A DNA stretch of 64,000 bases from an uncultured Gammaproteobacteria bacterium (GTDB lineage Bacteria; Patescibacteriota; Microgenomatia; Levybacterales; UBA12049), in NCBI GenBank assembly GCA_964408825.1, contig CAYPAU010000001.1, positions 76,789 through 140,788 on the forward strand. Direction: 5' to 3'. Positions 26,988-46,126 of the stretch are shown here, in pieces. The notes under the pieces are model-generated. The model made no database searches. It saw only the letters and a program-made list of their open reading frames with translations, and was not told the DNA's origin. Position 1 is the first letter of the stretch. The number at the start of each line of letters is the position of its first letter. A program made the translations under genes and the position numbers.

Positions 26988-26999
26988 AATTATTAAGAG

Positions 27000-27648: not shown

Positions 27649-27658
27649 AAGCCTACAT

Positions 27659-27729
27659 TGCTGGGTCATCTAACGGTAGGATAGCGGACTCTGAATCCGT
27701 TCATCTTGGTTCAAATCCAAGCCCAGCAG
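27659..27729 (+). tRNA. tRNA-Gln (anticodon CUG)
   Basis: Hand-folded: acceptor TGCTGGG/CCCAGCA with U1-A72 and G73, D-loop with GG, anticodon loop CUCUGAA, T-arm CTTGG-TTCAAAT-CCAAG. No encoded CCA. Confidence 0.8.
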
Positions 27730-27730
27730 C

Positions 27731-28109
27731 TATCCTTCGCCAAGGCTACGGAATAGCATGCAATTACGAAGCTGAGAGCGAAGTATTACATGCACTATTG
27801 TTATGTATTGTTGAGTTCAAAATCTCATATTTTTTATTTTGGTTCAACAAATAACTTGAAAAGCAGATTAAAATCGCATAACAATGGGAGTATTAAATCA
27901 ACTAGACCACATAGGCCTTGGGATTTAATTTGGTACGCCGGATTCAAAACCGAAAAAGAAGCAAGAGATTTTGAGCTTTATCTAAAATCTGGTTCAGGAA
28001 GATCGTTTGCCTACAAAAGATTAATTTCCGTAACGTTGAAGAAGGATTTCTCTGATGGGCGAAGAAGTAGTCCGAAGTCTAAGACGTAGGATACCAAGCC
28101 CAGCAGCTA
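27731..28109 (+). mobile_element. About 360-bp GIY-YIG cassette inserted at the tRNA-Gln 3' end. The 16-bp direct repeat CCAAGCCCAGCAGCTA sits at 27717-27732 and 28094-28109; imperfect inverted ends are TATCCTTCGCC and GACGTAGGATA.
   Basis: Exact 16-nt duplication of the tRNA 3' end 362 bp downstream. The second copy has no upstream T-arm, so it is not a tRNA. Confidence 0.5.
27790..28089 (+). CDS. GIY-YIG nuclease family protein (YhbQ/UPF0213-like, 99 aa)
   Basis: YCYVLLSSKSHIFYFGSTNNLKSRLKSHN is a GIY-YIG motif, followed by the family's downstream Arg/Glu helix. Confidence 0.75.
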   Translation: MHYCYVLLSSKSHIFYFGSTNNLKSRLKSHNNGSIKSTRPHRPWDLIWYAGFKTEKEARDFELYLKSGSGRSFAYKRLISVTLKKDFSDGRRSSPKSKT

Positions 28110-28190
28110 CGACGGGTAACCTTGTTAACTAGTTATTTTTGTTATTCTTAGAGAAGGCGGAGATAAAAAAGGATGGGGAAAAATAAAGTA

Positions 28191-28610
28191 TTAAAATACT
28201 CTTCGCCTTCCTGCGATTCTTTCTTGAATACTTTCTCTAAAGTCAGGAGAATCTCGAAAAACAACTGCGCTTTGGATGACACCTTCTATTTGAAGTCCCG
28301 TAACCTTACTGTCTCCTAATTCTTGAATTTCTAAATATACTTGCTGTTGTTGGGGAGACATATGATAAAAGGCTGGATCATGCTTCCATCTTGGTGCGCC
28401 ATATTGCACTAATCTTAAGTCTTCCGGAAATATATCTGGAACTGACTGTAGAATTTTTATAATCTGGTTACTGGAAGCAAAGCTCACTCTCCTTATTCTA
28501 GAACGTCCCCAACGAAAACAAAAAGCTTCCAGAATTTCACTTCTTGGATTTCCTAACTGATCTAACAGACTTGGTGTTTTCTCACCTGTCTCGTGTTCTC
28601 CTTGCACCAT
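28191..28610 (-). CDS. Hypothetical protein (139 aa)
   Basis: ORF with somewhat elevated GC, immediately downstream of the tRNA-Gln cassette. Confidence 0.35.
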   Translation of the reverse strand: MVQGEHETGEKTPSLLDQLGNPRSEILEAFCFRWGRSRIRRVSFASSNQIIKILQSVPDIFPEDLRLVQYGAPRWKHDPAFYHMSPQQQQVYLEIQELGDSKVTGLQIEGVIQSAVVFRDSPDFRESIQERIAGRRRVF

Positions 28611-28665
28611 ATTATATTACGCGGGAGAAATTATATCCTATATAGCTTATACTTGCAAATTTTGT

Positions 28666-29742
28666 TTAGTCTATTATTGTCTCGGGGTAGAAGGAGGACC
28701 AGGAGTACCAGAAGGCCTGCGTATGGAAAGGTGCCTCCAGTTTTTTTCCTTTTAAGTTTCCAGAGACAGCATTGCCATTGTAATCCCAGACACTTTTTGT
28801 TTCCTTGTCGATAAGTTTTCCGTCTCTTATTTCAAAGGTTAATCTTTTCCCATCAATAAATCTCCGAAAGATTTTATGCGAACCAAGTTCTTCATCGAAA
28901 ACTACCAAAACAGCCCATGGGCCCACTACGGAATTAATTACCTTTTGCCTCTCAATAAAACTCGTTGGAAAAAACTTTTCTTCTTTTCCTATTACAATGC
29001 CCAGTCCATTTGCAAATTCAGAGAGGCGCGCGTCCGGTTGTTTTCCCGGAGGAAGAGAAGCGAGTCCTATATTTGAATTTTTATAGATAATATATCGACT
29101 GCGATAAAACTCAATATCTTTTTGCGGGGAGAGGACCAGAAGATCTCTGCGGTCTTTGATATTTTTCCATTTTGTTTGTTCTGTAAAGCCTATTGGTTCA
29201 AGTCTTTTTCCAGAAAATTTTCCGCGGAAAGATTCACCAGTCAGTTGTAGCCAATACGTATCACTTACCTTGTCATACATAATTAAATTCCCGTAATATA
29301 ATGCTCCTAAAACTCCAAATTCAAGAGTTTCTCCCTCAAGCTCTCTTGAGAAGGCCGCCGGAGTGTTTGAAAGAAGACAATAAGTTATGGCAACTGGTAT
29401 CCCTTCGATATTATCATTTACGATATGGTGGAAGGTCATAATAGAAATAGGGTAGACATAAGTCTTATTTTTTGCTTGAAAGAGAAAAACGTCTTCGTCG
29501 TCTTTTATGAAACTACCAGCTTCTTTTGAATCCACATACTTAGGGTTTACAATATCGGGGAATAAATCCTTCTCAGGCCCTCCCCACATCTCCTCAGCGT
29601 TTAAATTTGTTTTGTTAGAAAATTGAGAAAGCTTTTCAGAAGCTTTAATTGTTTGAAAACTATAGAAATCCCATAAAAAAATTATTCCCACTAAAATAAG
29701 AAGAAGAGTTATACGAGCTATATACTTTCTCAACATAAGCAC
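28666..29742 (-). CDS. DUF3179 domain protein (N-terminal transmembrane helix)
   Basis: VAITYCLLSNTPAAFSRELEGETLEFGVLGALYYGNLIMYDKVSDTYWLQ matches the DUF3179 core pattern. Confidence 0.55.
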   Translation of the reverse strand: MLMLRKYIARITLLLILVGIIFLWDFYSFQTIKASEKLSQFSNKTNLNAEEMWGGPEKDLFPDIVNPKYVDSKEAGSFIKDDEDVFLFQAKNKTYVYPISIMTFHHIVNDNIEGIPVAITYCLLSNTPAAFSRELEGETLEFGVLGALYYGNLIMYDKVSDTYWLQLTGESFRGKFSGKRLEPIGFTEQTKWKNIKDRRDLLVLSPQKDIEFYRSRYIIYKNSNIGLASLPPGKQPDARLSEFANGLGIVIGKEEKFFPTSFIERQKVINSVVGPWAVLVVFDEELGSHKIFRRFIDGKRLTFEIRDGKLIDKETKSVWDYNGNAVSGNLKGKKLEAPFHTQAFWYSWSSFYPETIID

Positions 29743-29809
29743 TTTTGGTATTATAACTGACTATTTAGCAATTTGACATTCCGGAAATAAAAAGAATACT
29801 ATAGTATAG

Positions 29810-31462
29810 ATGAAAGGTATTCTTGCGATATTTTTGCTTTTGGTTTTAGGCGCTGCATTTCTTCTAATATCCGGCTCTCCATTTTCCAAAATGCTTCAGG
29901 AGGACCTTTTAAAGAAATTACCCTCTCCCGGAAAATCAACAAAAACGATTATTCTATCCGATGAAGACGTAAAGAAATTAAAAGAAATTCCTCAAAAAAC
30001 AATTATAAAGCTGGATGTCTCAAAGACGCTCGAGTTTGAAGGAAAAAAATATTATCTTATTGGTAAGGATGTAGGAACCTCCATTCTTACTACAGCTCCA
30101 AAGAGTCAAAAAGGATGGGGGGTTTTAACCGGAGTTAAACTTTCCCACCCTGATTATAAGAAAATCTATAAGCCGACAGATCCCTGCCCTTTATATCAGA
30201 ATGCTTCAAATCAGAATGCCCCTGCGGCTCCCTGCGCCAATCATAAAGGCGTTACTCTTGCGGGACATCTTTATGCACTAAAGACAGTGGTAAATCAGAG
30301 CAGAACAGACAATGACCCTATACATGCATATAACATTTTCGACGTATATTACGAGAAACCTATGTTGTCCCAGGCAGCGGAAAAGGAACAGGAATACCCC
30401 ATCTACAATAGCGGCGGAGTATCGGGACCGGTAGTTGTATCAGGAGGCAGTGGGCTTGAGGTCGAGCTCGATGAGTCAGTTACCCCACCGGTTCTTAGAG
30501 TTAGCGGAGTTTTTTTAGGAATAAAACTCCCTAATGAAACGGCAGAAAAAGAATTTACGCTTCAAGGCAAGAATATTAAAACACAAAGCGAGGCAGCAAA
30601 AGAGTTTTCTTACCTGGGGAAGCTAAGCGATATAAGCTCGACTCCTCTTGAGAATGGTGATCCTTCAACGCTTCATGTTTACTATAAAGAACCATATGCG
30701 TACCTTACGGATTTAAATCCGGATGAGCTAAAGAAAAGAATAGGAGATGATCTTAAGTTTGTAAGTGGAGCTGATTTTGGTCAGGCTGAAGATGAAAAGA
30801 ACAATCTTCAGCTTAGGGCATTTACTCCTCAAAGACCTACGATCCCCTTTGATGTGTATATTCTTTCCGATCTTTCCGTCCTAAAGCCTGTATTAGGTTA
30901 TGTAAGACCTACGATAACCAATCTTCATATCGGTGTTCCTGAGTGCCCGGCTCTCTATCTTTATGGGCAGAATGGTCAAAAGTTCACCGTTTCTCTTCCT
31001 CAAGATGCTATAGATACAATCCCTATCACCTCGGACTTTTGGGAAGGAACAATTGTGCCCGGTGGGGTAGAAATCGGAAAGAAATTTTACAATTATTTGT
31101 TTTACACAGTAAAGCCAGATTTGGTAAGTTTGCCTCAAAAAGAAGGGTGGGTGATATCTGAAGGAGAGTGGTACACATTGAAATCAAAATTAAGAATGGT
31201 TGGGTTTAACCAAAGAGAAAGTGAAGATGCAGTTGATTATCTACAGACTGCGGTGCCTCCTTCCCCGTACTATCTTATCTCGGTAAATCTTAATAGCCAA
31301 AACTATCCTTTGTCGATAACTCCAAGACCGGATACCTTCCTTCATTACCAGATAGTTGTAAAGTCTCTTGATAAACCGGTTTCGGTTTCTCCCCCTTCAA
31401 AGATTAGTCCCAAACGCGAGGGTTTTGCTGCTGTAATGTGGGAGGAGAAAATTATTCACTAA
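29810..31462 (+). CDS. Hypothetical secreted protein (550 aa, signal peptide)
   Basis: N-terminal hydrophobic signal; no recognisable domain. Confidence 0.4.
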   Translation: MKGILAIFLLLVLGAAFLLISGSPFSKMLQEDLLKKLPSPGKSTKTIILSDEDVKKLKEIPQKTIIKLDVSKTLEFEGKKYYLIGKDVGTSILTTAPKSQKGWGVLTGVKLSHPDYKKIYKPTDPCPLYQNASNQNAPAAPCANHKGVTLAGHLYALKTVVNQSRTDNDPIHAYNIFDVYYEKPMLSQAAEKEQEYPIYNSGGVSGPVVVSGGSGLEVELDESVTPPVLRVSGVFLGIKLPNETAEKEFTLQGKNIKTQSEAAKEFSYLGKLSDISSTPLENGDPSTLHVYYKEPYAYLTDLNPDELKKRIGDDLKFVSGADFGQAEDEKNNLQLRAFTPQRPTIPFDVYILSDLSVLKPVLGYVRPTITNLHIGVPECPALYLYGQNGQKFTVSLPQDAIDTIPITSDFWEGTIVPGGVEIGKKFYNYLFYTVKPDLVSLPQKEGWVISEGEWYTLKSKLRMVGFNQRESEDAVDYLQTAVPPSPYYLISVNLNSQNYPLSITPRPDTFLHYQIVVKSLDKPVSVSPPSKISPKREGFAAVMWEEKIIH

Positions 31463-31985
31463 ACTTAAGGTTTTGAAGATTCCGAAGTTGCAATTCTATA
31501 TTCCTATCTTCTTTCGGTCCGTAGGAAACAAGTAATCTATCTTCGTTTTTGATCTCCCTATCAAGAGTCTTATCATCTTTCGCCCCATTTATAAAAAATT
31601 TAAGTGTATGCGTTTGATTTGAGCAAAATACTTGTCCGGTTCCTGTCGTAATACAAGTTTTTTCAAGTTTCATAGGCAATGTTTTGAAAAAATCATTCCA
31701 AGTAACTCCTTTTTTTATGACATTAATAACACTTGGATTACCAGAACTTATAAAAACATCTTCTGAGCGATTATGATACCGAGGATCAGTAAATATGCGA
31801 AATGTCCCATTGGTATAAATAGCAAAAGTAGCTTCAGTTTTGCCTCTTGTATCCGAAGATGGGGTACTCGATATATTATTTGTCGGAGCAGAAATAGTGG
31901 GATAATTGGTTTGATTTTTAAATAACAGATAGCTTGCGCCGGCCAGTACGATTGCTGAGACAAAAAATCCAAGCAAATATTTCAT
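31452..31985 (-). CDS. Hypothetical secreted or lipoprotein-like protein (177 aa)
   Basis: N-terminal signal/transmembrane segment with a Ser/Thr-rich linker. Confidence 0.4.
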   Translation of the reverse strand: MKYLLGFFVSAIVLAGASYLLFKNQTNYPTISAPTNNISSTPSSDTRGKTEATFAIYTNGTFRIFTDPRYHNRSEDVFISSGNPSVINVIKKGVTWNDFFKTLPMKLEKTCITTGTGQVFCSNQTHTLKFFINGAKDDKTLDREIKNEDRLLVSYGPKEDRNIELQLRNLQNLKFSE

Positions 31986-32044
31986 AATACATTCTATATT
32001 AACACATAGAAAAGAATATCTATTCCTGATACAATTTAAAATCT

Positions 32045-33226
32045 ATGATTGACAAGAAACTCTTCGTTTTACTTTTGGTAGTTTTTATTGATCTTTTGGG
32101 ATTTGGAATAGTAATACCCATACTCCCTATCTTAATTGAAAGAATCGGTGGGGGAGCATTTATGGTAGGAGTTATAATCTCCATTTTTTCTCTTTTCCAG
32201 TTTATTTTTGCTCCCATACTTGGAAGACTGTCTGATAAATACGGCAGAAGACCAATCCTTATACTGACTGCTTTTATAAATTCTTTATCTTATTTCCTGA
32301 TTTTCTTTTCACAAAGTTTATTTATTATCCTCGCTGCCCGAATTATTGCAGGTATCGGAAGTGCCAATCTCTCGGTTGCTACAGCCTATGTTGCAGATAC
32401 ATCCAAGTCCCATGAAAGAACAAAAAAGATGGCATTAATCGGTTCAATATTTGGATTGGGTTTCATCATAGGCCCTCTTATAGGAGGAGTCGCATCTGAA
32501 AAAATTTCAACAAGCGCACCCTTTTTGATACCGGCGATTTTGTCATTAGTCAATACTGTTTTAATGTTCTTTGTCTTACCCGAATCAAATAAAATTCTTC
32601 AAAAGCATATAAAAATCGAGCTTTTTAGCTTAAGAGTTACCAGAGAAGTATTGCGTCCCAAGAATATGTCTTTCCTTCTTTTTCTTTTCTTCTTTGCAAA
32701 TTTGGCCCTTGCACTTATTATAGGCGTCTTTCCTCTGTTCTCACATGAGAGGTTCGGCTGGAATGAAGCTCAAAACGGTTACTACTTCGGTCTTATAGGA
32801 GTGGGGTCTTTTATAACTCAGGCATTTTTAATAAGATTTCTCTTGAAAAGATTTGACGAGACACAACTTATTAGACTTTCTCTTTTGGTTTTTGGTATCT
32901 CTATACTAATAGTAGGGTTTTCCCATTGGGGACTTTTGACGCTTTTTATCGGGCCATTTACTTCTTTTGGTTTTAGTCTCACAAACGTAAATGTTCAGTC
33001 TCTTATATCTTTAGAATCCAAACAGGACGAGCAGGGGATAGTCCTTGGTGTCGCACAATCTTTTGGCTCTATGGCAAGAGTTATCGGCCCTTTGATAGGC
33101 GGAACAATTGCAACTCTTAATTTGGGAGCCCCCTATATCGTTTCAGGGATCTTTACTATTCTTATTCTCGTCTTCGGCCAGAATTATTTAAAATATATAA
33201 AAGCAACGAGAAAGGCAACGAAGTAA
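32045..33226 (+). CDS. MFS transporter (drug:H+ antiporter-like)
   Basis: 12-transmembrane topology and MFS motif GRLSDKYGRRPILIL. Confidence 0.8.
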   Translation: MIDKKLFVLLLVVFIDLLGFGIVIPILPILIERIGGGAFMVGVIISIFSLFQFIFAPILGRLSDKYGRRPILILTAFINSLSYFLIFFSQSLFIILAARIIAGIGSANLSVATAYVADTSKSHERTKKMALIGSIFGLGFIIGPLIGGVASEKISTSAPFLIPAILSLVNTVLMFFVLPESNKILQKHIKIELFSLRVTREVLRPKNMSFLLFLFFFANLALALIIGVFPLFSHERFGWNEAQNGYYFGLIGVGSFITQAFLIRFLLKRFDETQLIRLSLLVFGISILIVGFSHWGLLTLFIGPFTSFGFSLTNVNVQSLISLESKQDEQGIVLGVAQSFGSMARVIGPLIGGTIATLNLGAPYIVSGIFTILILVFGQNYLKYIKATRKATK

Positions 33227-33235
33227 AGATATTTC

Positions 33236-33358
33236 ATGAAAAAATATAACTATATTTTATTCGATTGGGATGGTTGTCTGGGAAGAACGCTTGAAGTCCA
33301 CCTAGATAGCTATAAAAGAAACAAAAGAAGACAAAACCTATATGGGGATGCCCTATAA
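33236..33358 (+). pseudogene. Remnant of a HAD-family hydrolase gene (N-terminal 40 codons only)
   Basis: MKKYNYILFDWDGCLGRTLEVHLDS carries HAD motif I (hhhDxDGxL), then stops after 40 aa. Confidence 0.35.
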
Positions 33359-33412
33359 AGGTAAATCCTAATTTTTGTTTCCTAATCTAGAAAGAGTTTT
33401 TTTAAAAGAGAG

Positions 33413-33754
33413 TTAATAAGACCTTCCTCCTCTTGAGCCTCCTCCGCGTCTATCACTGCCCCTGTCCCCGCCTCGGAAGTTTCCTCCTCCAAAGTTTTCT
33501 CTGGGGACCATTGGTTTGGCTTCGTTTACAGTAATTGCTCTTCCGTCAAGTGTTTGACCATTGAGTTTTTCGATTGCATCTTTTGCTTCTTGTTCATTTG
33601 ACATTTCAACAAATCCAAATCCCTTTGATCTTCCGGAATATTTGTCTTTTATGATAGTTGCAGATACAACGTTTCCTGCTTGGGCAAAAAAGTTTTTAAG
33701 AGAGTCTTCGGTGGAATCCCAAGAGATTCCCCCAACAAACAGTTTAGTTGCCAT
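33413..33754 (-). CDS. RRM-type glycine-rich RNA-binding protein
   Basis: RNP2 LFVGGISW and RNP1 KGFGFVEM, with a C-terminal RGG/Gly-rich tail. Strong RBS GGAGGTGATTAATTAATG. Confidence 0.8.
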   Translation of the reverse strand: MATKLFVGGISWDSTEDSLKNFFAQAGNVVSATIIKDKYSGRSKGFGFVEMSNEQEAKDAIEKLNGQTLDGRAITVNEAKPMVPRENFGGGNFRGGDRGSDRRGGGSRGGRSY

Positions 33755-33946
33755 TAATTAATCACCTCCATTCTTTTATGAACCTGTACGAACACTTACT
33801 TCCTTAGACAACATCTGTTTATCGGGATATGCTAAAAGAAGAATGGGTACAAGATTACAATATTAGGACCTATTATACACTATATTTTTAGGAAAACCAA
33901 CAAGAATTGCTCTAAGACTTCCCATTCTGTTATTCTAGATATTGGA

Positions 33947-36367: not shown

Positions 36368-36371
36368 AAAT

Positions 36372-36800
36372 TTACTGCATTCTTTCCAGAAATTCGGCTG
36401 GTGTTAGGATGCTGATCTTTTTATACTCGCCTAATTCCAAAAGCTCTTTGTCCCCCGTAACGATATATTGACACCTTCCTTCTATCGCCGCCTCAAGAAC
36501 TCTGTTGTCATCCTTATCTTCAGTAATGTTTAGCGTCGTGCTTGGATGAACTTTTTTAAAATTTTTTTTAATAATTCTTTCAAATTGATCAATTCTTCTG
36601 GTTTCGAAATTAAACTTTTTGGCTAGTGTTTCTACGAGTTCTGATATTAAAACAGGGGAAGTTATTGCAATAATTTTCCCCTCAATCACTAAATCGTAAA
36701 TCTTCTGAGGTTTTCCTCCAAAAACATGCGCTGAGATAAGAACATTTGTGTCTAAGAGGACTCTAGGAGGATTTTTTGCCATGCCTATACTCCCAGACAA
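36372..36800 (-). CDS. PIN-domain toxin (VapC-like)
   Basis: VLLDTNVLISA acidic N-terminal motif and the PIN fold (...ITGDKELLEL). Confidence 0.75.
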   Translation of the reverse strand: MSGSIGMAKNPPRVLLDTNVLISAHVFGGKPQKIYDLVIEGKIIAITSPVLISELVETLAKKFNFETRRIDQFERIIKKNFKKVHPSTTLNITEDKDDNRVLEAAIEGRCQYIVTGDKELLELGEYKKISILTPAEFLERMQ

Positions 36801-37014: not shown

Positions 37015-37032
37015 AGATTCGATCCCCTCACT

Positions 37033-37075: not shown

Positions 37076-37099
37076 TAGTTATTGTTTTAGTATATTAGT

Positions 37100-39138: not shown

Positions 39139-39145
39139 TAAGATA

Positions 39146-40267: not shown

Positions 40268-40353
40268 ATTTTTTATTATATTCTTAATTTCTTAAGTTTG
40301 CACACATAATTCTTGATCTCCCTAAAGCTATCTGTTATTATTTAATTTAATTA

Positions 40354-40380
40354 GTTAACCCTCCGGGGTTGACTTTTTTT
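40354..40380 (+). terminator. Terminator-like hairpin (8-bp stem GTTAACCC/GGGTTGAC, tetraloop) plus T7 run, 8 nt before the next start codon
   Basis: gttaaccc-tccg-gggttgac-ttttttt, read directly. Confidence 0.5.
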
Positions 40381-40387
40381 GAACAAA

Positions 40388-41890
40388 ATGTATAAAATTA
40401 TATCAGACAAAGCAAACATGGTGTCCCTTGAGACTGTAGATGGGCGCATCGACCTACCGGAGAGGACCAAACTGGTTCCCCTAGATTTCCTTGAACAAAT
40501 TTCACATCAAATAAATCCACAAATTAGAGCAGACGGTATAAGAGCATCTTCTTCAACCGACAGATTTGGCCCAGCATCCGAATCAAACTCAAACGGGAGG
40601 CGTGGCTTAAGGCTCTTTGTAAGAGACGGACTGCAGGTTATTGAGGATAAAATACATGCTGATAGTCTTTTTCAAAACGGACTCTTCAAGCTTCCAATAG
40701 AAGAAGCCTTTTTTAGCTTATTAAAATATGTAGGAACAGAGGATGTACCCGAACGGGGAATTTATAGAGGCAAACAGGTACATGAGATTGGATATGTTGC
40801 GGATGGATTTCCAAGGCATTGGGTTTCTGATCCAAATGAGCTTGGAGTAAATCCTGACTCAAGAGATGCAACTCCTCACACTCTAATTGTCATGGACAAG
40901 ATGCTTAAAATACTTCCCGATAGACCTGATTTATTCGAAAGATTTTTATCATACGCAGTACCAATGCTTGAATGGGATTTGAAAGACTCAGAAGAGCATG
41001 GAGGATTTCCGACATACACCGGTGCCGAATTTGATAAGGAGAGGAAAACCGAAGGCCTTACTAACCACAGATGGACAGACTGCGGCTATTTTGTAACAAA
41101 TGAAAATGGGACAATTCCCAAACACCCAATAGCTGCGGTAGAAATTGCTGCGATGACATGGGCCGCAAGGCTCAGATGGGCAGATAGGCTTGAGGGCAGG
41201 GAAGGATTTGAAGAATTAAGTCGAAAATTAAGAATATCGGCCGGAGAACTTCAGGGAAAATTTATGGAACATTTTGTTTTTGAAGATGAGGGAGGACCGT
41301 TTCTTGCAGATGCACTTGACGGAGACTTAAAGCCGGTAAAATCTGTTACCTGTAATCCAATAATCGCATTGTCCTACGATTATGAAGGGAACCAAATTGT
41401 TCAAGATGAAGATTTGGTAAGAGAAATAATAGAAAGAACGTTTACCTTCTTTGATCCACGTGGCGGAATTTTGACGGTAGATCCGAAATCTTATACGCAT
41501 CCTAAGAATATATACCAGGGGAAAGAAGCTTTATGGATTAAGGTTCAGTCAAATGCCATGAGAGCACTTCTTATAGCATCCAAAAGATTAAGAAAGTTAA
41601 ATCCAACACTTTCAGGACAATATGAGAAGATGGCAATAACACTAGCCCAGGCATCTCTTAAGCCACCTCATCATTTTGCTTCCCCAATTGAAGTTGTTCT
41701 TCTTCTCCCCTCAGGAGGTTATAGGCGGTATGAAGAATACGATGAGGATGGGAAAAAGATTGGAGAAGCCTGCCGAGTTCAGTCATGGACAGGGAGTGCC
41801 ATGGAATATGCAATTTCATTCCTTAGGTCAAGGGGAATAAGTAATGTAGACATTTCCATACCAAACCCAAGTCTCTCTCAGGTTGTCTGA
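40388..41890 (+). CDS. Hypothetical protein (about 500 aa, GC-elevated); possibly an (alpha/alpha)6-barrel glycosidase-like fold
   Basis: Long soluble ORF; the fold guess is a weak impression only. The ORF track starts at TTG 40379; the first ATG is at 40388. Confidence 0.35.
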   Translation: MYKIISDKANMVSLETVDGRIDLPERTKLVPLDFLEQISHQINPQIRADGIRASSSTDRFGPASESNSNGRRGLRLFVRDGLQVIEDKIHADSLFQNGLFKLPIEEAFFSLLKYVGTEDVPERGIYRGKQVHEIGYVADGFPRHWVSDPNELGVNPDSRDATPHTLIVMDKMLKILPDRPDLFERFLSYAVPMLEWDLKDSEEHGGFPTYTGAEFDKERKTEGLTNHRWTDCGYFVTNENGTIPKHPIAAVEIAAMTWAARLRWADRLEGREGFEELSRKLRISAGELQGKFMEHFVFEDEGGPFLADALDGDLKPVKSVTCNPIIALSYDYEGNQIVQDEDLVREIIERTFTFFDPRGGILTVDPKSYTHPKNIYQGKEALWIKVQSNAMRALLIASKRLRKLNPTLSGQYEKMAITLAQASLKPPHHFASPIEVVLLLPSGGYRRYEEYDEDGKKIGEACRVQSWTGSAMEYAISFLRSRGISNVDISIPNPSLSQVV

Positions 41891-42357
41891 GACTGCCTCC
41901 CTTTACCGTTTTGTGAGGGAAGCTTTTCAATAGAGCTTATTTTTTCCTGAATAAAACTCATTGCGCTTTTGATATCATCCAAATCTTTTTGAATGTCTTC
42001 CACATCTTCTTCCAATTCCTCTTTTTCTTTTTCTTCTTCCTGCTGTTCTTTTTCTTCTTCAAGCTCACGATACTCATCAATAAGCGCCTGTCTTTTCTGA
42101 GCTACTAAAATAAAGGTTGCCAAAAAGACAGCCTCCAATGAAAGAAGTATATTGAAAATTTCAATTTGAAAAGGTCTGGTAATGAAAAAAAGCACGAAAG
42201 CAATTACATGAAAATAAACAAAAAACATGCCCCCCGAGAGGTTTGTTATTAATTCTGCCATACGTCCCTCAGTGGATTGAAGCCTTTTTTTTAGTTGTTC
42301 CGGCGTTATCTTCTTGGCTATTCTAAATGGTATCGTAGCTATTGTTTTTCTTGTCAT
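41878..42357 (-). CDS. DUF1003-like membrane protein with an acidic coiled-coil tail
   Basis: Two transmembrane helices (FFVYFHVIAFVLFFITRPFQIEIFNILLSLEAVFLATFILVAQKRQ) then a Glu-rich region. Confidence 0.5.
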   Translation of the reverse strand: MTRKTIATIPFRIAKKITPEQLKKRLQSTEGRMAELITNLSGGMFFVYFHVIAFVLFFITRPFQIEIFNILLSLEAVFLATFILVAQKRQALIDEYRELEEEKEQQEEEKEKEELEEDVEDIQKDLDDIKSAMSFIQEKISSIEKLPSQNGKGRQSQTT

Positions 42358-42410
42358 ATTTAAATTTTAGTCCCGATCGTAAAGCGGTGTCAACCCCGCA
42401 CCGCCTCCTC

Positions 42411-42439
42411 TTGACAACTAGCAAAGTGTATGATAGAGT
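42411..42439 (+). promoter_or_regulatory. Candidate sigma70 promoter for lon (TTGACA-17-TAGAGT)
   Basis: Perfect -35 hexamer. Its position implies the lon start is the second ATG at 42460. Confidence 0.35.
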
Positions 42440-42459
42440 GCCAATACTACGATAAATTT

Positions 42460-44880
42460 ATGGAAAAATTAATCCCGGTAATTCCAATAAGAGACGGGAT
42501 CATCTTTCCAAAGATAGATTCTGTTTTAACTTTTGGAAGGCCCAAGAGCCTTGCCGCACTTGAGAGTTCTTTTCAGGGAGAAAGAGTCGTTTGTTTTGTC
42601 CTTCAAAAAAACCCAAGACTCAATGAGCCTGAATCTCAGGATTTATATGAAATAGGGACCCTTTCCAGAATAGAAAGAATGATAAGATCGGACGGGGAGA
42701 TAAATGCTCAGGTAAAAGGTATTTCAAGAGCAAAAATATTATCTTATGAGCCCCACGAACAATTCTTACTTGCAAAAGTAACTGAGCTTGAAGATGTTCT
42801 TGCGGAAGATCCCCAAATAAAGGCTCTTTGCAATCACATAACCAATCAGTTCAGAAAAGCAATAAACCTTGGAAAATCAGTAGACTTTCTTGCCTTCATG
42901 AATATAATGTCTGATAATTCCCCTTCGGAGCTTGCAGATCTTATAGCTTCTGTATTGGATGTAAAACCACAGGAGCGGCAGGAGCTTTTGGAAATGATAG
43001 ATGTAAAACAGAGACTTGAAAAAGTTTCAGACCTTTTAAGTAAAGAAATAAAAGTCTTGGAACTTGAAAGAAAGCTTGCCTCAAAGACTCAGGAAAGATT
43101 TGAAAAAGGAGCAAAAGAGGCATTGCTTAGGGAAAGACTTAAGACTATCGAAAAAGAACTTGGGCAAAGTGAGGAAGATGGCGAAATAAGAGAGCTTTTG
43201 GACAAAATAAAAGAGGCAGGGATGCCTGAGGACGTTGAGGAAAAGGCAAGGAAAGAGCTTAAGAAACTTGGGCAAATGAATCAATTTAATCCGGAAGCAG
43301 GTTACATCAGAAATTATCTGGATTGGCTTGTAAGTCTTCCATGGAGCAAGGAAAGCAAGAGCGATGTTGATATAAAATCGGCAGAAAAAATTCTAGATGA
43401 GGACCACTATGGACTTAAAAAGATTAAAGAAAGAATTGTTGAGTACTTGGCAGTTCATAAGCTCTCGGGGAAGATGAAAGGTCCGATCCTCTGTTTTGTG
43501 GGACCACCGGGTGTTGGAAAAACATCTATTGGAAAATCCATAGCAAGAGCATTAAATCGCAAATTTGTAAGGGTTTCTTTGGGCGGTATTAGAGACGAAG
43601 CAGAGATTAGGGGACACAGGAGAACCTATGTTGGGGCTCTTCCCGGAAGGATAATTCAAGGTGTTAAGGACGCAGGTACCAGAAATCCTGTCTTTATGCT
43701 CGATGAAATAGATAAGGTAGGGGCAGATTTTAGAGGCGATCCATCCTCGGCACTCTTAGAAGCATTGGATCCCGAGCAAAATAATTCCTTCTCAGACCAT
43801 TATCTTGAAGTACCTTTTGATCTTTCGGACGTAATGTTTGTTACAACCGCAAACGTTTTAGATACAATTCCTCCGGCACTTCGCGACAGACTTGAAATTA
43901 TTAACTTCGCTGGTTACACCCATGATGAGAAGTATAAAATTGCCAAAGAGTTCCTTCTTAAGAAACAAATGGAAAGCCACGGACTTTCCGATAAAACTGT
44001 CGAAGTAAAAGACGATGCCATAAAGTTCGCAATCCAGCATTACACACGAGAAGCAGGAGTAAGAAGTTTGGAGCGACAAATCGCATCGGTTCTGCGGAAA
44101 ATTGCAAAGATTATTGCGGAGGCTATGCCTGCCGCCCGCCTGCCGGGCGGACAGGGCAGGCAGGGCAAAAAGACAAAGATTGCAATTGGGGCAAAAGATA
44201 TACCTAAATACTTGGGTCCAATAAAGCTAAGAGGTACTTTGGTTGAAAAGAAGGATGAAATAGGGATGTCCACTGGTCTTGCTTGGACAGAGGCAGGGGG
44301 AGACATACTATTTATAGAGGTAGCTCTTATGCCGGGCAAGGGGAATTTGATACTTACGGGTCAGCTTGGAGATGTCATGAAGGAATCCTGTCAGGCTGCG
44401 ATGAGCTACATAAGGGCAAGAGCAAAGCTAATGGGACTTCCTGAGAAGTTCTATTCAAAAATTGACGTACATGTTCATGTTCCGGAAGGCGCAGTTCCCA
44501 AAGACGGGCCTTCGGCAGGAATTGCTATAACAACTGCAATTGTTTCTGCACTGACCCGAATACCGGTTAATCGAAAAGTCGGGATGACAGGTGAGGTTAC
44601 GCTTCGGGGAAGAGCGCTTGAAATAGGCGGAGTCAAGGAAAAAGTGATAGCTGCTCACAGAGCGGGTTTAAAGACCATAATAATGCCAAAGGATAATAAG
44701 AAAGACCTCGAAGATGTGCCAAAAGAAGTAATAAAAGACTTAAGTTTTAAGTTTGTCAATCACATGGACGAGGTTTTAAATATTGCTCTTATGAAACCGC
44801 TTCAGAGAATTAAGGCTCATGAGGCAGAGCCGGCACCAAGACCCATGCTCCACGCCACCCCTCCAACTCAGGCAGACTAG
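42460..44880 (+). CDS. lon: ATP-dependent protease Lon
   Basis: LON N-domain, AAA+ Walker [10 protein letters not shown], protease domain [17 protein letters not shown] with catalytic Ser/Lys. The ORF-track start is 42430. Confidence 0.9.
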
Positions 44881-44916
44881 TTTGCGCAGGGATTTTTAAT
44901 CCAATATAATGTTTAG

Positions 44917-45624
44917 ATGGAGTTGCTTCTTCAGGTTTCTGATTTTTTTCTTCATCTCGATAAATACCTCGCAGTTATAATCTCAGCAGTCGGACCTCTT
45001 ACATACGTAGTCTTATTTGCAATAGTTTTCGTTGAAACCGGATTTGTAATCATGCCTTTTCTTCCCGGGGATTCGCTTCTTTTTATATCAGGCGCACTGT
45101 CCGGAACAGGACACTTAAATGTTTTTTTGGTTTACGCTACCCTATTTTTGGCAGCTGTAATAGGGGATACCGTGAACTATTGGGTGGGTCATCACATAGG
45201 GCCGCGGGTTTTCTCAAAAGAAAATTCAAGAATTTTCAAAAAAGAATATCTCGAGAGGACTCGGGAATTTTACGAAAAGCATGGAGGAAAGACCATTATA
45301 CTTGCCCGCTTTATTCCAATAATTCGCTCTTTTGCTCCTTTTGTGGCAGGAGTAGGCAAAATGCATTACAAAACGTTTTTAATGTACAACGTCTCAGGGG
45401 CATTTGTCTGGGTAACTCTATTTGTGCTTGGTGGCTATTTCTTTGGAGGACTTCCGATTATCAAAGAAAACTTTCACTACACTGTATTTATAATCGTGTT
45501 CCTATCCTTCCTTCCAATGGTTATCGAGTATATAAATCACAAACGCAGAAAAAGATTGGCAAGAGAAAAGACCACATATGAGGAAATAGAAAAAACTTTC
45601 GAAAAAGAACACCTCGCCGACTAG
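44917..45624 (+). CDS. DedA/SNARE-associated family membrane protein
   Basis: FVETGFVIMPFLPGDSLLFISGAL and RFIPIIRSFAPFVAG motifs. Confidence 0.8.
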   Translation: MELLLQVSDFFLHLDKYLAVIISAVGPLTYVVLFAIVFVETGFVIMPFLPGDSLLFISGALSGTGHLNVFLVYATLFLAAVIGDTVNYWVGHHIGPRVFSKENSRIFKKEYLERTREFYEKHGGKTIILARFIPIIRSFAPFVAGVGKMHYKTFLMYNVSGAFVWVTLFVLGGYFFGGLPIIKENFHYTVFIIVFLSFLPMVIEYINHKRRKRLAREKTTYEEIEKTFEKEHLAD

Positions 45625-45633
45625 CGTTTGAAA

Positions 45634-45662
45634 TTGTAATTAAACCCAGATTAAGGTAAAAT
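45634..45662 (+). promoter_or_regulatory. Sigma70-like promoter for tRNA-Glu (TTGTAA-17-TAAAAT)
   Basis: Its -10 lies 10 nt upstream of the tRNA 5' end. It shares the GGTAAAATAA context with the tRNA-Gln promoter. Confidence 0.4.
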
Positions 45663-45672
45663 AATGGCAGTT

Positions 45673-45745
45673 GGCCCCATCGTCTAGTGGCCTAGGACGG
45701 CAGGTTCTCATCCTGCAAACCCGGATTCGACTTCCGGTGGGGTCA
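45673..45745 (+). tRNA. tRNA-Glu (anticodon CUC)
   Basis: Hand-folded: acceptor GGCCCCA/TGGGGTC, D-arm TCGTCTAGTGGCCTAGGAC typical of tRNA-Glu, anticodon loop UUCUCAU, T-arm CCGGA-TTCGACT-TCCGG, discriminator A. Confidence 0.8.
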
Positions 45746-46126
45746 CTTCGGCAAGCTCAGTGCAAGCACTTCTATGCTAAAGGCTTCAGAGTGGTTCATC
45801 TATATGCTTCTTTGCGATAATAAAACTTTCTACACGGGGATTACTGATAATTTTATCGAGAGGTTTATAAAACATATAAATAAACAGAATATATCTACAA
45901 AAAAGTTTTTAAAAATTAAATTTGTTTATGCAGAAAAATATCGAGACAAATATCAAGCGGCAAGGAGAGAAAAACAGCTCAAAGGTTGGTCGCATGCAAA
46001 GAAGCAGTTAATGATTGACGGAAAACTTGGAATTAATACTTGTACTGAGTTTGTTGAAGATCTCATTTCGAAGCTGAATCTTTGAGTTTATTCCGAGCCT
46101 GCCGAGGAAACTTCCGGTGGGGTCAC
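45746..46126 (+). mobile_element. About 360-bp GIY-YIG cassette at the tRNA-Glu 3' end. The 17-bp direct repeat ACTTCCGGTGGGGTCAC sits at 45730-45746 and 46110-46126; the 13-bp inverted ends CTTCGGCAAGCTC and GAGCCTGCCGAGG match at 11 of 13 positions.
   Basis: Exact 17-nt duplication of the tRNA 3' end 380 bp downstream; inverted repeats sit immediately inside the duplications. Confidence 0.5.
45774..46085 (+). CDS. GIY-YIG nuclease family protein (YhbQ/UPF0213-like, 103 aa)
   Basis: WFIYMLLCDNKTFYTGITDNFIERFIKH (compare E. coli YhbQ [28 protein letters not shown]) and ARREKQLKGWSHAKKQL. Confidence 0.75.
   Translation: MLKASEWFIYMLLCDNKTFYTGITDNFIERFIKHINKQNISTKKFLKIKFVYAEKYRDKYQAARREKQLKGWSHAKKQLMIDGKLGINTCTEFVEDLISKLNL

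Follow-up and report, generated by a model that had tools for sequence, protein, structure and literature searches.

A putative family of small GIY-YIG nuclease elements behind tRNA genes of Patescibacteria

Two cassettes and their host tRNAs

Our analysis indicates that two cassettes in the window (the whole 64 kb stretch of DNA analysed) are selfish DNA of about 360 bp, whose sole gene encodes a tiny stand-alone GIY-YIG nuclease of about 100 aa. They appear to represent one widespread, apparently undescribed element family of Patescibacteria that inserts behind tRNA genes and leaves the tRNA undamaged; a published description of such elements was not found in the literature. According to ARAGORN the window contains only two tRNAs, and each of them carries a cassette (Table 1). 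The element begins 0-2 nt past tRNA nucleotide 74, its right end is an inverted repeat of its left end, and a direct copy of the host tRNA 3′ end follows. The geometry of this repeat is constant per family, namely tRNA nt 61-74 in family 1 (tRNA-Gln locus) and nt 57/58-74 in family 2 (tRNA-Glu locus). These bracketing repeats were absent from the first-pass annotation of the window.

Table 1. Features of the two cassettes and related sequences in the window.
Feature	Position	Strand	Description
Degenerate relative of the 4598 hairpin	2288-2307	+	CCCCTCGTTAAAACTCCGGA; like 4598, directly after a stop codon
Stray family-1 terminal hairpin copy	4598-4617	+	TCCTTTGTTAAAACTTCGGA; sugar-operon intergenic spacer; no attached ORF or tRNA
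Promoter-like site, tRNA-Gln	27620-27648	+	TTGTCC-17-TAAAAT, within GGTAAAATAA; outside element
Host tRNA-Gln(CTG)	27659-27730	+	ARAGORN; Rfam tRNA 57.8 bits; G73 discriminator 27729, C74 27730; intact
Family 1, target copy 1	27717-27732	+	tRNA nt 61-74 (T-stem 3′ strand, acceptor 3′ strand, G73, C74) + TA
Family 1, left-end imperfect palindrome (LE)	27733-27752	+	TCCTTCGC-CAAG-GCTACGGA; model R1 51.6 bits, R2 30.4 bits; covariation
Family 1, GCATGC-centred palindrome, then second hairpin in inverted orientation	27752-27785		
Family 1, GIY-YIG nuclease ORF	27790-28089	+	99 aa; Pfam PF01541, E 1.5e-18
Family 1, inner right-end hairpin	28027-28046	-	TCCGTAACGTTGAAGAAGGA; within ORF 3′ part; inverted copy of LE (inverted repeat I2); R2 13.2 bits
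Family 1, outer right-end imperfect palindrome (RE)	28071-28093	-	TCCGAAGT-CTAAG-ACGTAGGA + TA; includes stop codon; covariation
Family 1, target copy 2	28094-28109	+	tRNA-Gln nt 61-74 + TA repeated; arrangement common to 52 loci
Promoter-like site, tRNA-Glu	45634-45662	+	TTGTAA-17-TAAAAT
Host tRNA-Glu(CTC)	45673-45746	+	ARAGORN, Rfam tRNA; A73 45745, C74 45746; intact
Family 2, target copy 1	45730-45746	+	tRNA nt 58-74; start inside T-loop
Family 2, left terminal inverted repeat	45747-45769	+	TTCGGCAAGCTCAGTGCAAGCAC; family consensus ACTTCGGCAAGCTCAGTGCAAGC
Family 2, GIY-YIG nuclease ORF	45774-46085	+	103 aa; Pfam PF01541, E 6e-13; alignment A2
Family 2, right terminal inverted repeat	46093-46109	-	CCGAGCCTGCCGAGGAA; family consensus CTGAGCTTGCCGAAGG
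Family 2, target copy 2	46110-46126	+	tRNA-Glu nt 58-74 repeated

The family-1 cassette is bracketed by the perfect 16-nt direct repeat CCAAGCCCAGCAGCTA, the repeat common to the whole family being a 14-nt block. Each terminal inverted repeat is itself an imperfect palindrome, and TATCCTTCGC in LE recurs in inverted form at the right end, where the family consensus is GCGAAGGATA and the window has ACGTAGGATA. LE and the following palindrome and second hairpin (27765-27785, TACGAAGC-TGAGA-GCGAAGTA) form a hairpin doublet directly ahead of the start codon; model searches gave 26.3 bits (minus strand) and 18.5 bits (E 0.019) for the stretch after LE. The ORF keeps the conserved catalytic positions Y5, Y16, R26, H30 and E62 (alignment A1), and the closest solved relatives of its product are UPF0213 and SLX1. 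The inner right-end hairpin encodes the conserved peptide SV(A/T)LxKD, and its position scored 19-34 bits in many loci.

Family 2 shows the same design with a block of 18 nt and Tyr, Asn, Gln, His and Glu tRNAs as hosts. Here the perfect direct repeat ACTTCCGGTGGGGTCAC comprises 17 nt, the consensus AC of the left end coincides with tRNA nt 73-74, and the right end agrees with the reverse complement of the family-2 left end at 12 of 15 positions. Public annotation starts this ORF at an internal Met, giving 93 aa over which P0121 is 100% identical.

Conserved left ends directly after both tRNAs and CGAAG-type inverted sequences near both right ends had been described in the first-pass annotation, and both were found again. 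The left ends TCCTTCGCCAAGG (27733-27745) and CACTTCGGCAAGC (45745-45757) have 9 of 13 positions in common (chance about 2e-3 at fixed positions by a binomial estimate) and contain the core CTTCG-N-CAAG shared by both families, and the right-end sequences are TCCGAAGTCTAAGACGTAGGA (28071-28091) and that of the family-2 right repeat (46093-46109). The more general CTTCGG/CCGAAG theme did not hold up, since the bare hexamer, with 35 matches in 64 kb, occurs at chance level. Similar host promoters had also been noted, and the window indeed has exactly two occurrences of GGTAAAATAA (27641 and 45655), although two matches were reached in 8 of 100 shuffles and chance is not excluded. The motif was missing from 61 host tRNAs of other genomes and lies upstream of the tRNA, outside the element; it is therefore a property of the host tRNAs and uninformative on the element family. 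Between tRNA-Gln and the ORF we detected no promoter-like or terminator-like site. The nuclease gene lacks a promoter of its own, so its transcription presumably starts at the tRNA promoter and reads through, and the tRNA-Gln promoter probably drives the cassette ORF in this manner.

Copies in other genomes

A scan for further copies, as suggested previously, recovered many at tRNA 3′ ends in other Patescibacteria. Recurrence of the left ends exceeds chance: the family-1 motif was kept in 74 of 80 loci of that family, and ACTTCGGCAAGCTCAGTGC, the left end of family 2, in 14 of 16 close loci of its own family. Since the conserved ends are located outside the tRNA and do not change with the tRNA that precedes them, tRNA conservation does not explain them. 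The earlier proposal of one element family thus stands at the level of a superfamily, within which two subfamilies differ in end sequences and repeat length (14 versus 17-18 nt).

A same-strand tRNA ended 25-60 nt ahead of the ORF in 53 of the 80 family-1 loci, and a tRNA T-arm directly preceded at least 56 of 70 testable ones, with TTCRA directly ahead of the 14-nt block in 54 of 70 loci and variant T-loops in two more. The repeat was perfect (14/14) in 38 of 52 loci and always fitted the local tRNA, mostly Gln, Ser or Asn and otherwise Tyr, Trp or Leu. Agreement between the two copies amounted to 0.83-0.96 per position over the 14 nt, compared with 0.35-0.58 immediately downstream of the block and values mostly near 0.1-0.3 upstream. 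Cassettes whose proteins are 80-83% identical occupy tRNAs of different types and in each case show a perfect repeat of the particular host (e.g. L004 on Ser versus L023 on Gln), which suggests that the repeat is regenerated after a host switch. Closest cassette pairs nevertheless shared the tRNA type in 74% of cases versus a background of about 30%, and orthologous dnaX-tRNA-Gln(TTG), tRNA-Gln(CTG) and tRNA-Asn loci were each occupied in several species. In relatives that share the gltX-hyp197 neighbourhood, neither the tRNA nor the cassette is present at that place. A conserved left flank that is not a tRNA, with no matching repeat, was seen at about 10 of 70 family-1 loci and at several of family 2. 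Comparison of loci in other genomes yielded no empty orthologous site and insertion was not seen directly, so we infer the mechanism.

In family 1 the left end pairs with the right end, the left-end model matches right ends on the opposite strand, and compensatory changes occur symmetrically within each end. The variable positions of the left end are not those of the right end, so the two are not mere copies of a single site for protein binding. In thermodynamic terms the end palindromes are weak, and they folded no better than shuffles.

Nuclease evolution

The two nucleases of the window share 29% amino acid identity and the cassettes 55% nucleotide identity, in agreement with the previous view of divergent paralogues and no recent duplication. 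Among family-1 relatives the catalytic residues are invariant (alignment A1), and dN/dS of 0.05-0.19 at dS 0.4-2.5 shows strong purifying selection. Within the same genome pairs GIY-YIG identity was 79-85% where DnaX, encoded beside the same tRNA-Gln, reached only 49-64%. Family 1 extends across many Patescibacteria classes at 65-82% identity and forms 8 clusters at 50% identity. Judged from these comparisons, the nuclease looks functional and horizontally mobile. Copies within one genome have diverged (68-82% nucleotide identity), so that no recent intragenomic burst is visible, and cassette GC content equals that of the host. The insertions had been considered old; this is true of the lineages but doubtful for the insertions themselves, which we argue are young or continually renewed because the flanking repeats are mostly perfect.

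Copies without a nuclease gene

ORF-less derivatives consisting of a left and a right end also occur. One (L100, 7-83) stands in tandem with a full copy, with a target copy after each unit; further ones are L016 2005-2096 and L003 150-260, and the hairpin at 4598 of the window belongs with them. ORF-less copies outside tRNAs showed no obvious target duplication. By blastn the 4598 hairpin is identical at 19 of 20 positions to the reverse complement of RE from four other genomes (L004, L030, L050 and L080) and at 21 of 22 to the ORF-less element in L016 (R2 24.5 bits, E 4e-4). Two sugar-operon motifs had been tentatively linked to the cassettes before, as tRNA-like pseudo-target sites or footprints. 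Of these, the one at 4598 does belong with the element, yet it is a stray copy of the terminal hairpin and no tRNA-like pseudo-target or footprint; the one at 2288, which resembles it, is only degenerate and not significant (R2 10.7 bits).

Possible mechanism of insertion

We consider it probable that the cassette is a mobile element that is driven by its nuclease, is directed at the 3′ ends of tRNA genes and creates a second copy of its target when it inserts, i.e. a specialised selfish element of Patescibacteria. By analogy with SegB of phage T4, the nuclease would recognise the conserved stretch from the T-arm to the 3′ end of tRNA genes and might introduce staggered cuts, with one strand opened after nt 74 and its partner 14 (or 17-18) bp away, at or in the T-loop. 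Its inverted-repeat ends would serve to recognise the element, which would then be joined in, and gap filling would duplicate the target. The flanking repeats could then permit scarless loss, and homing or recombination may spread cassettes among same-type tRNA genes and reshuffle downstream DNA. Several points count against this scenario. GIY-YIG enzymes cut by hydrolysis and as a rule produce 2-nt 3′ overhangs, none is known to generate 14-18-nt staggers or to serve as a transposase, and the 99-aa nuclease has no separate DNA-binding domain. The missing empty site, the weak palindromes, the lack of an intragenomic burst, the non-tRNA flanks, the differing variation of left and right ends and the ORF-less non-tRNA copies lacking target duplication were counted on the same side.

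The strongest alternative, although we regard it as unlikely, is homing only. GIY-YIG is a classic homing-endonuclease fold, and the cassette could be a free-standing homing-endonuclease gene whose product breaks both strands of a vacant tRNA gene in the T-loop, with repair copying the cassette from an occupied allele. Copy 2 would be a built-in right homology arm, physically the recipient's own tRNA 3′ end, and its sharp left edge the cut site, which would account for a perfect copy 2 despite saturated dS between lineages. The shared tRNA type of closest pairs and the occupied orthologous loci also fit, and SegB homes at tRNA genes (PMC2330249). Homing alone, however, provides no correct copy 2 or intact tRNA upon a change of host type, whereas such switches happened, always with perfect new-host repeats and the same geometry. 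It leaves the inverted-repeat ends and the ORF-less non-tRNA copies without a role, and an occupied tRNA with intact T-arm would stay a target.

We give little credence to a resident, non-mobile module, in which the nuclease gene, linked to the tRNA, is passed on vertically, the hairpins are processing or stability signals of a tRNA-mRNA co-transcript, and function holds the repeated tRNA 3′ end identical. The promoterless ORF 25-60 nt past the tRNA, purifying selection, host-like GC content and occupied orthologous loci would agree with it, as would compensatory changes that fit RNA helices and a left-to-right pairing that tolerates G.U. Yet conservation of the protein far exceeds that of DnaX in the same genomes and extends across classes, closely related cassettes occupy different tRNA types, there are tandem and ORF-less copies, the gltX-hyp197 relatives lack tRNA and cassette, the hairpins are weak, and a 14-nt single-stranded tRNA fragment has no apparent function.

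Integration in trans, by the integrase of another element or by Xer, seems very improbable. A repeat from T-loop to 3′ end is the usual signature of integrase insertion into tRNA genes and would be an att core shared by element and tRNA, as in tRNA-integrating islands; tandem arrays occur, and other islands lie beside cassettes at the same tRNAs (L005, L051, L075 and L099 with tgtctcatttgtctcattt repeats, L015 with helicase genes). But the 360-bp element has no recombinase gene, its 14-18-nt repeat tracks the sequence of each host tRNA including species-specific variants, such that the element would need a matching att for every host, and att sites do not need inverted-repeat ends.

Least credible of all is single-strand "peel and paste" of the IS200/IS605 or REP-RAYT style, with subterminal hairpins recognised on one strand, insertion 3′ of a short matching target and the tRNA fragment carried along as part of the right end: asymmetric hairpin ends with structure-preserving covariation, strict orientation relative to the tRNA, stray intergenic hairpins, agreement limited to the final ~4 nt where repeats are mismatched or the left flank is not a tRNA, and a copy 2 that in several mismatched loci is the authentic 3′ end of another same-type tRNA speak for it, but an HUH transposase is lacking, GIY-YIG enzymes have to our knowledge no covalent intermediate, family-2 ends are plain inverted repeats without hairpins, and mismatches would be frequent if the copy were carried to a new host type, while no cross-type mismatch was seen.

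The nuclease-driven element we favour resembles SegB in its targeting of tRNA-gene 3′ ends, and SegB offers a precedent for the geometry. Its recognition sequence is GGTTCRANTCC and cleavage takes place at the tRNA 3′ end, the site consisting of the T-arm motif, a degenerate middle and CCAR, followed by the cut; nine of nine sites lie at tRNA 3′ ends, the best one being tRNA-Asn (PMC2330249).

Two nuclease cassettes bracketed by copies of tRNA 3′ ends

Both tRNA genes of the window are followed by a small GIY-YIG nuclease gene that is enclosed between a left end and a right end and is succeeded by a second copy of the tRNA 3′ end. The perfect direct repeats which in this way bracket each cassette are the most telling feature of the two loci, and they had not been stated in the first-pass annotation. 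The sequences quoted there were found in place: TCCTTCGCCAAGG starts 3 nt past the tRNA-Gln gene, CACTTCGGCAAGC overlaps the final two bases of the tRNA-Glu gene, and the only two occurrences of GGTAAAATAA in the window both lie about 10 nt upstream of a tRNA. The host organism belongs to the Patescibacteria (CPR), with best protein matches to Levybacteria and a GC content of about 37%. The two nuclease proteins are 29% identical, and a recent duplication linking the cassettes was ruled out by their nucleotide identity of only 55%. Of the earlier proposal that both belong to one element family with shared ends, the common design and the terminal CTTCG-N-CAAG motif that had been noticed then held up, but the cassettes represent two subfamilies, here called family 1 (the tRNA-Gln(CTG) type) and family 2 (the tRNA-Glu(CTC) type). 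A scan of the window with a generic end-palindrome pattern matched both ends of cassette 1 only.

Features of the two tRNA-linked cassettes in the window
Feature	Position	Strand	Remarks
tRNA-Gln(CTG)	27659-27730	+	one of the two tRNA genes in the window
tRNA-Glu(CTC)	45673-45746	+	the other of the two tRNA genes in the window
Family-1 GIY-YIG ORF	27790-28089	same as tRNA-Gln	99 aa; Pfam PF01541, E 1.5e-18
Family-2 GIY-YIG ORF	45774-46085	same as tRNA-Glu	103 aa; Pfam PF01541, E 6e-13
Direct repeat of tRNA-Gln 3′ end	27717-27732 and 28094-28109		perfect, 16 nt; brackets cassette 1
Direct repeat of tRNA-Glu 3′ end	45730-45746 and 46110-46126		perfect, 17 nt; brackets cassette 2
Promoter-like site upstream of tRNA-Gln	27620-27648	+	
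Promoter-like site upstream of tRNA-Glu	45634-45662	+	

Relatives of both cassettes at other tRNA genes

The family-1 protein has hundreds of relatives with 65-82% identity in many classes of Patescibacteria. The family is covered by eight representatives in a library clustered at 50% identity and lies among 1,807 more distant small GIY-YIG clusters (E ≤ 1e-10). Among 80 family-1 loci sampled from species-representative genomes the conserved left end was present in 74, and a tRNA gene stood upstream of the ORF on the same strand in 53, mostly at a distance of 25-60 nt. Linkage to gltX was considered as a general context of the cassette and was absent from the other loci.

The left end is preceded by a block of 14 nt that corresponds to tRNA nucleotides 61-74, namely the 3′ strand of the T-stem, the 3′ strand of the acceptor stem, the discriminator and C74. 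A canonical T-loop (TTCRA) was located exactly before this block in 54 of the 70 loci with enough upstream sequence, and two further loci of these 70 showed variant T-loops. The same block reappears directly after the right end. When the block of the tRNA itself (copy 1) was compared with the downstream repeat (copy 2) at 52 loci, agreement per position was 0.83-0.96 over the 14 nt, against 0.35-0.58 just past the block and mostly near 0.1-0.3 ahead of it, and all 14 positions were identical in 38 loci. The repeat carried the sequence of the local tRNA in every case, with Gln (23), Ser (18) and Asn (9) as the main hosts and Tyr, Trp and Leu as single cases. Unoccupied tRNA genes in family-1 loci were mainly those for Arg, Thr, Leu and Lys, together with some for Ser and Asn.

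Most tRNA genes in the loci that we retrieved from other genomes and metagenomes (L001-L164) lack an encoded CCA, yet have a C at position 74. In filled loci copy 2 is often followed by CA, giving a full CCA, whereas the tRNA-proximal copy is followed by an element-derived TA or AA; this suggests an insertion point between nucleotides 74 and 75.

Relatives of the family-2 protein were collected from metagenomes, 16 of the loci having at least 49% identity. The left end ACTTCGGCAAGCTCAGTGCAAGC was found directly behind a tRNA-type 3′ end in 14 of these 16, the hosts being tRNA-Tyr, tRNA-Asn and tRNA-Gln, with tRNA-His in the closely related loci L098 and L101 and tRNA-Glu in the window. The right end CTGAGCTTGCCGAAGG is an inverted repeat of the left end, in which ACTTCGGCAAGCTCAG pairs with CTGAGCTTGCCGAAGG, and the downstream tRNA copy begins within the T-loop (GAATCC...) and is 17-18 nt long. 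A third type of left end (TTCGACTCGC...) occurs at more distant small GIY-YIG genes that are also located behind tRNAs; most distant small GIY-YIG relatives are not.

Structure and covariation of the family-1 ends

The family-1 left end reads (T/A/C)A-TCCTTCGC-yAAr-GCTACGGA-AT-nGCATGC, where the ATG within GCATGC serves as start codon in the shortest versions. The right end has the form TCCGAAGC-loop-GCG(T/A)AGGA-TA, followed by the tRNA copy, and often overlaps the final codons of the ORF. Since TATCCTTCGC and GCGAAGGATA are reverse complements, family 1 has terminal inverted repeats, and a covariance model of the left end matches the right ends on the opposite strand as well as a second, inner inverted copy in the 3′ part of the ORF. 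Each end forms an imperfect palindrome in which two mismatches are invariant and paired positions clearly change together in a symmetric way. On the left, pair 5-20 was CG (n=40) or UA (n=28) and pair 11-14 was UA (n=49) or CG (n=21); on the right, pair 2-19 was CG (n=13) or AU (n=8) and pair 7-14 was GC (n=19) or AU (n=4). The observed covariation score was reached by no shuffle, and the variable positions differ between left and right ends. A long-range RNA stem between the two ends, which is largely retained when G.U pairs are allowed, was rejected as the sole cause of the inverted repeats because in 11 of 41 elements it is disrupted by the GTA variant of the right end, with local pairing preserved. 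Stable end hairpins were likewise rejected, as the predicted structures are weak (-2 to -7 kcal/mol) and no better than those of shuffled sequences.

Some further observations concern the same ends. The C-terminal peptide SV[A/T]LxKDF...SSPK is encoded by two inverted end hairpins (window 28027-28091), so that its conservation may reflect nucleic-acid as much as protein constraint. An insert of about 45 nt (TCCGTCGCTACTACGTAGCTATGGAATAG...) with GCTA on both sides splits the left-end hairpin in three unrelated loci (L019 ~2380-2425, L027 ~2937-2982, L032 ~815-860) and may be a nested mini-insertion. In four other loci (L048, L022, L051, L036) tandem units of about 31 nt (e.g. GAATGGCAAGCCATTACGAAGTGTTACAAAGT) are present in 3-5 copies between left end and start codon; the unit itself includes end-like hairpin sequence, and the 5′ leader is expandable.

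Evidence bearing on mobility

Cassettes with 80-83% amino acid identity were found behind tRNAs of different types, and in every case a perfect repeat of the host tRNA was present in the same geometry. The closest cassette pairs shared the tRNA type in 74% of cases against a background of about 30%. Strong purifying selection acts on the ORF (dN/dS 0.05-0.19), with synonymous sites near saturation (dS 0.4-2.5) even in the closest pairs. Copy 2, which is 14 nt long and has no obvious function, is mostly perfect and follows lineage-specific changes of the tRNA; L023 and L040, for example, differ at two positions, which are the same in both of their copies. In repeats with several mismatches copy 2 was the authentic 3′ end of another tRNA for the same amino acid and not a decayed copy (in L096 and L026, for instance, it equals the tRNA-Gln 3′ end of L041), as recombination of cassettes at two isoacceptor genes would give.

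An arrangement of dnaX, tRNA-Gln(TTG) and cassette is common to seven species, in which DnaX is 40-64% identical (49-64% in the compared pairs) versus 79-85% for the GIY-YIG protein. Between loci, synteny was seen on one side, either ahead of the tRNA or behind the cassette, and almost never on both. Derivatives consisting of left and right ends without an ORF were also detected: one lies in tandem with a full cassette with a target copy after each unit (L100 7-83), one in an intergenic spacer without a tRNA (L016 2005-2096), and one at L003 150-260. Partial second left ends are present behind the downstream repeat in L061, L015 and L087.

Several results were counted against recent activity. 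Copies within a genome are 68-82% identical at the nucleotide level, no relatives of family 1 were found in viral contigs (IMG/VR), and the search for empty orthologous sites yielded none. Of the predicted empty junctions (...GGTTCAAATCCAAGCCCAGCAGCTACGACGGGTAACC for tRNA-Gln, ...GATTCGACTTCCGGTGGGGTCACAAGAGCTCATAAG for tRNA-Glu), that of tRNA-Gln gave no match in an exact scan of metagenome contigs. Orthologous tRNA loci were occupied in several species, with no empty allele among those examined. Exact-protein look-ups of four flanking genes returned only short Logan contigs that break in the tRNAs, or filled copies. The gene pair gltX-hyp197 is kept in six relatives, in none of which tRNA-Gln follows, and therefore these relatives offer no comparable orthologous empty site.

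In the Levybacteria the gltX-hyp197 pair is conserved, while the whole downstream region is different from one relative to the next (L165-L176, against window 25758-27730); together with the missing tRNA-Gln this places tRNA-Gln and cassette at a synteny break. The same-strain Logan contigs carrying the flanking genes (L081-L084) end inside or at the edge of both tRNAs, which fits assembly breaks induced by repeats or polymorphism. A left flank other than a tRNA (GTTCnAA..(A)TCGTCC...(G/C)AGC(a/c)a) recurs about 30 nt to the left of the element in both family 1 (L003, L006, L011, L012, L015, L027, L036, L045, L062, L078) and family 2 (L085, L087, L089, L090, L094). Its last ~4 nt alone agree with the downstream tRNA copy, it adjoins island-like genes (helicase/restriction, zinc-ribbon transposase-like), and it could represent the att end of a different integrated element. 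Clusters of tgtctcatttgtctcattt and its complement gagaca upstream of the cassette (L005 ~2790-2830, L051, L075, L099) just precede a partial tRNA 3′ end whose T-loop is unusual (TTCYAGA) and look like arm-type sites of an integrase element using the same tRNA. Finally, a LOOT RNA (RF03000) was detected near two cassettes, on the minus strand of L036 (2670-2790, 84 bits), where the match ends about 120 nt upstream of the left flank of the cassette, and on the minus strand of L045 (4614-4740, 72 bits).

The nuclease protein and its expression

Both proteins consist of the catalytic domain plus only about 25 aa. Their membership in the GIY-YIG superfamily is evident from residues Y5, Y16, R26, H30 and E62, which are invariant in the family-1 alignment, and Y20, G22, R30, H34 and E66, which are invariant in that of family 2. 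A beta-beta-alpha-beta-alpha-alpha secondary structure is predicted, with a low-confidence AlphaFold model (pLDDT 54), and the closest relatives among solved structures are the UPF0213 proteins 1zg2 (BH0048, E 3e-6) and 1ywl and SLX1. As they have no DNA-binding domain, the proteins do not share the SegB/I-TevI architecture with its tethered DNA-binding domain and a total of ~200-250 aa, and the NCBIfam model for group I intron endonucleases gave 19.5 bits versus a cut-off of 56. Searches of Pfam, NCBIfam, PHROG and PADLOC identified no family other than GIY-YIG in the ORF content of the element.

No promoter-like or terminator-like site was present in the spacer between tRNA and ORF in either cassette of the window, and in relatives this spacer is as short as 27 nt. 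These features suggest that the nuclease gene is most likely read through from the tRNA promoter. The first-pass annotation had counted a shared promoter context towards one element family; this view was abandoned, since GGTAAAATAA is not part of the element and is missing from all 61 host tRNAs compared in other genomes. The likeness is a trait of the two tRNA promoters of this genome.

Related hairpins in the sugar operon

The annotation had further linked two hairpin motifs of the sugar operon to the cassettes. Part of its argument was a CTTCGG theme, which dissolves at the hexamer level, as 35 occurrences in 64 kb correspond to chance frequency. The link itself gained sequence support for one of the motifs. 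The 20-mer at 4598-4617 (TCCTTTGTTAAAACTTCGGA) agrees at 19 of 20 positions with the reverse complement of the right ends of L004, L030, L050 and L080, and at 21 of 22 with the hairpin on the left of the L016 element that lacks an ORF (blastn E 5e-4 to 8e-3). It reached 24.5 bits (E 4e-4) with a hairpin model, one training sequence of which was the right-end variant indicated by BLAST. The 2288 motif scored 10.7 bits with the same model and represents a degenerate copy. Both stand just after a stop codon, and rather than tRNA-like pseudo-targets, as had been speculated, they appear to be stray terminal hairpins, which are rare (about three in ~300 kb of flanks).

In a wider view, related motifs of about 45 nt (2286-2330 and 4596-4640) directly follow the stops of ORFs 1274-2284 and 3305-4594. 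Both are composed of a hairpin of the cassette-end type, a CATG-containing spacer and then CCGAAGCTT, and the two halves of each are able to pair with one another (ACTTCGG...CCGAAGCT). A leftover of an ORF-less derivative is one possibility, an RNA stabiliser or processing signal that has been reused another.

A probable mechanism and its implications

The target, the repeats and the ends can be combined into a model of staggered insertion, which we regard as the most likely reading. The patescibacterial enzymes would read the same conserved tRNA stretch as the phage T4 endonuclease SegB and would cut one strand after nucleotide 74 and the other at the border of T-loop and T-stem (family 1) or within the T-loop (family 2). 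Once the element, bounded by its inverted repeats, has been inserted, gap filling would produce the duplication of 14 or 17-18 nt and leave the tRNA intact, and through the flanking repeats the element could be lost without a scar. In this scheme the specificity of cleavage, the stagger, the joining step and the origin of the inserted copy are what we infer. Since the termini CTTCG.../...CGAAG resemble halves of the T-loop palindrome TTCGAA, one might speculate that a very small protein reads a single motif at the target and at both ends.

Pure homing is the main alternative. The fixed, family-specific geometry on all hosts and the inverted-repeat ends favour staggered insertion. Homing that uses copy 2 as its right homology arm probably helps the cassettes to spread among tRNAs of the same type, and would also account for why perfect repeats persist.

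If the nuclease alone drives insertion, a new transposon class becomes possible. Tentatively, and with less than even confidence, we propose a prokaryotic DNA transposon class, widespread in Patescibacteria, whose sole ~100-aa GIY-YIG nuclease would read a TTCG/CGAA-type motif in the T-loop and at its own ends and cut staggers of 14-18 bp at a fixed tRNA-gene position, with joining by host repair; the elements would be safe for the tRNA and form MITE-like derivatives without an ORF. Such a minimal element would unite a protein of the homing-endonuclease type with transposon anatomy, two life styles that are usually separate, and a bare GIY-YIG domain would be able to drive site-specific insertion. 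This would also account for the frequent small genes annotated as 'GIY-YIG nuclease family protein' behind tRNA genes of Patescibacteria and for the gene-order breaks directly behind these tRNAs. The protein is a candidate for a very small natural protein directed at the universally conserved DNA from T-arm to 3′ end of tRNA genes, without inactivation of the gene. For annotation, a partial tRNA 3′ end is to be expected ~350-400 bp downstream of such tRNAs, as well as assembly breaks.

Comparison with known systems

The closest experimentally studied case is SegB of phage T4, a GIY-YIG homing endonuclease encoded in a phage tRNA cluster. Its 27-bp site runs from the T-arm motif GGTTCRANTCC through a degenerate stretch to CCAR, after which the cut is made, and the nine mapped sites, the best of them in tRNA-Asn, all lie at tRNA-gene 3′ ends (PMC2330249). 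Both systems have a nuclease gene among or behind tRNA genes and target tRNA genes of many types, including Asn, Gln and Ser, and the cut point and recognised stretch of SegB match the insertion point and the duplicated block of the cassettes. SegB, however, has ~220 aa with a DNA-binding domain and belongs to an I-TevI-like branch, whereas the 99-103 aa cassette proteins contain the catalytic domain only and are nearest to UPF0213/SLX1. SegB loci have neither inverted-repeat ends nor a duplicated tRNA 3′ end, and the gene spreads through homing among phages that co-infect. UPF0213/YhbQ (COG2827) and the SLX1 nuclease domain, the best matches among solved structures, are of the same size and single-domain; unlike the cassette proteins they are regarded as cellular proteins with an unknown or a structure-specific nuclease function, and the literature searched contained no link of theirs to tRNA genes, inverted repeats or target duplications.

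With insertion sequences and MITEs the cassettes share one small gene, ORF-less derivatives, terminal inverted repeats (TATCCTTCGC/GCGAAGGATA with extended palindromic ends; ACTTCGGCAAGCTCAG/CTGAGCTTGCCGAAGG) and a target-derived duplication of fixed length (14 nt for family 1 and 17-18 nt for family 2), which presumably arises at insertion. They differ in that the sole protein is a hydrolytic nuclease and no transposase of a known class (DDE, HUH, serine, tyrosine or Cas1) is encoded; furthermore, at 14-18 bp the duplication exceeds the usual length, a single structural position of tRNA genes serves as target, and each genome has few copies.

Islands and prophages that integrate into tRNA genes also insert into the 3′ part and leave a direct repeat that restores the tRNA, and casposons produce ~14-15-bp duplications and are often located at tRNA 3′ ends. 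The restored tRNA end is the only resemblance to the islands: islands and casposons are kilobases long and encode an integrase or Cas1, whereas the cassette has no recombinase, and its repeat is not a constant att core but differs with every host tRNA, following the sequence of each. A recombinase acting in trans is a conceivable but unlikely agent of integration.

REP/REPIN-RAYT systems likewise combine a small gene between inverted hairpins with stray hairpins or doublets in spacers after stops, but RAYT is an HUH enzyme and REPs occur in hundreds of copies, in contrast to the rare stray cassette hairpins. Neither REP-RAYT nor IS200/IS605 applies, since the cassettes encode no HUH protein, have a flanking repeat, and the family-2 ends are not hairpins. 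A group I tRNA intron or another known structured RNA is dismissed by insertion after nucleotide 74 and not in the anticodon loop; Rfam gave only the two tRNAs at gathering threshold, nothing credible up to E 10 within 27600-28200, and no family matching the cassette ends.

Full-text searches of the literature found no account of GIY-YIG cassettes that are linked to tRNAs and carry inverted repeats or duplications. Insertions with GIY-YIG ORFs that are 'not similar to either intron' have been described in rRNA genes of the CPR (PMC11270868). They share the host group and the presence of GIY-YIG ORFs within insertions in stable-RNA genes, but lie inside rRNA genes at scattered sites (PMC11270868); they may be related to the tRNA cassettes. 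Set against these systems, the element is best described as a free-standing selfish nuclease gene with transposon-like ends.
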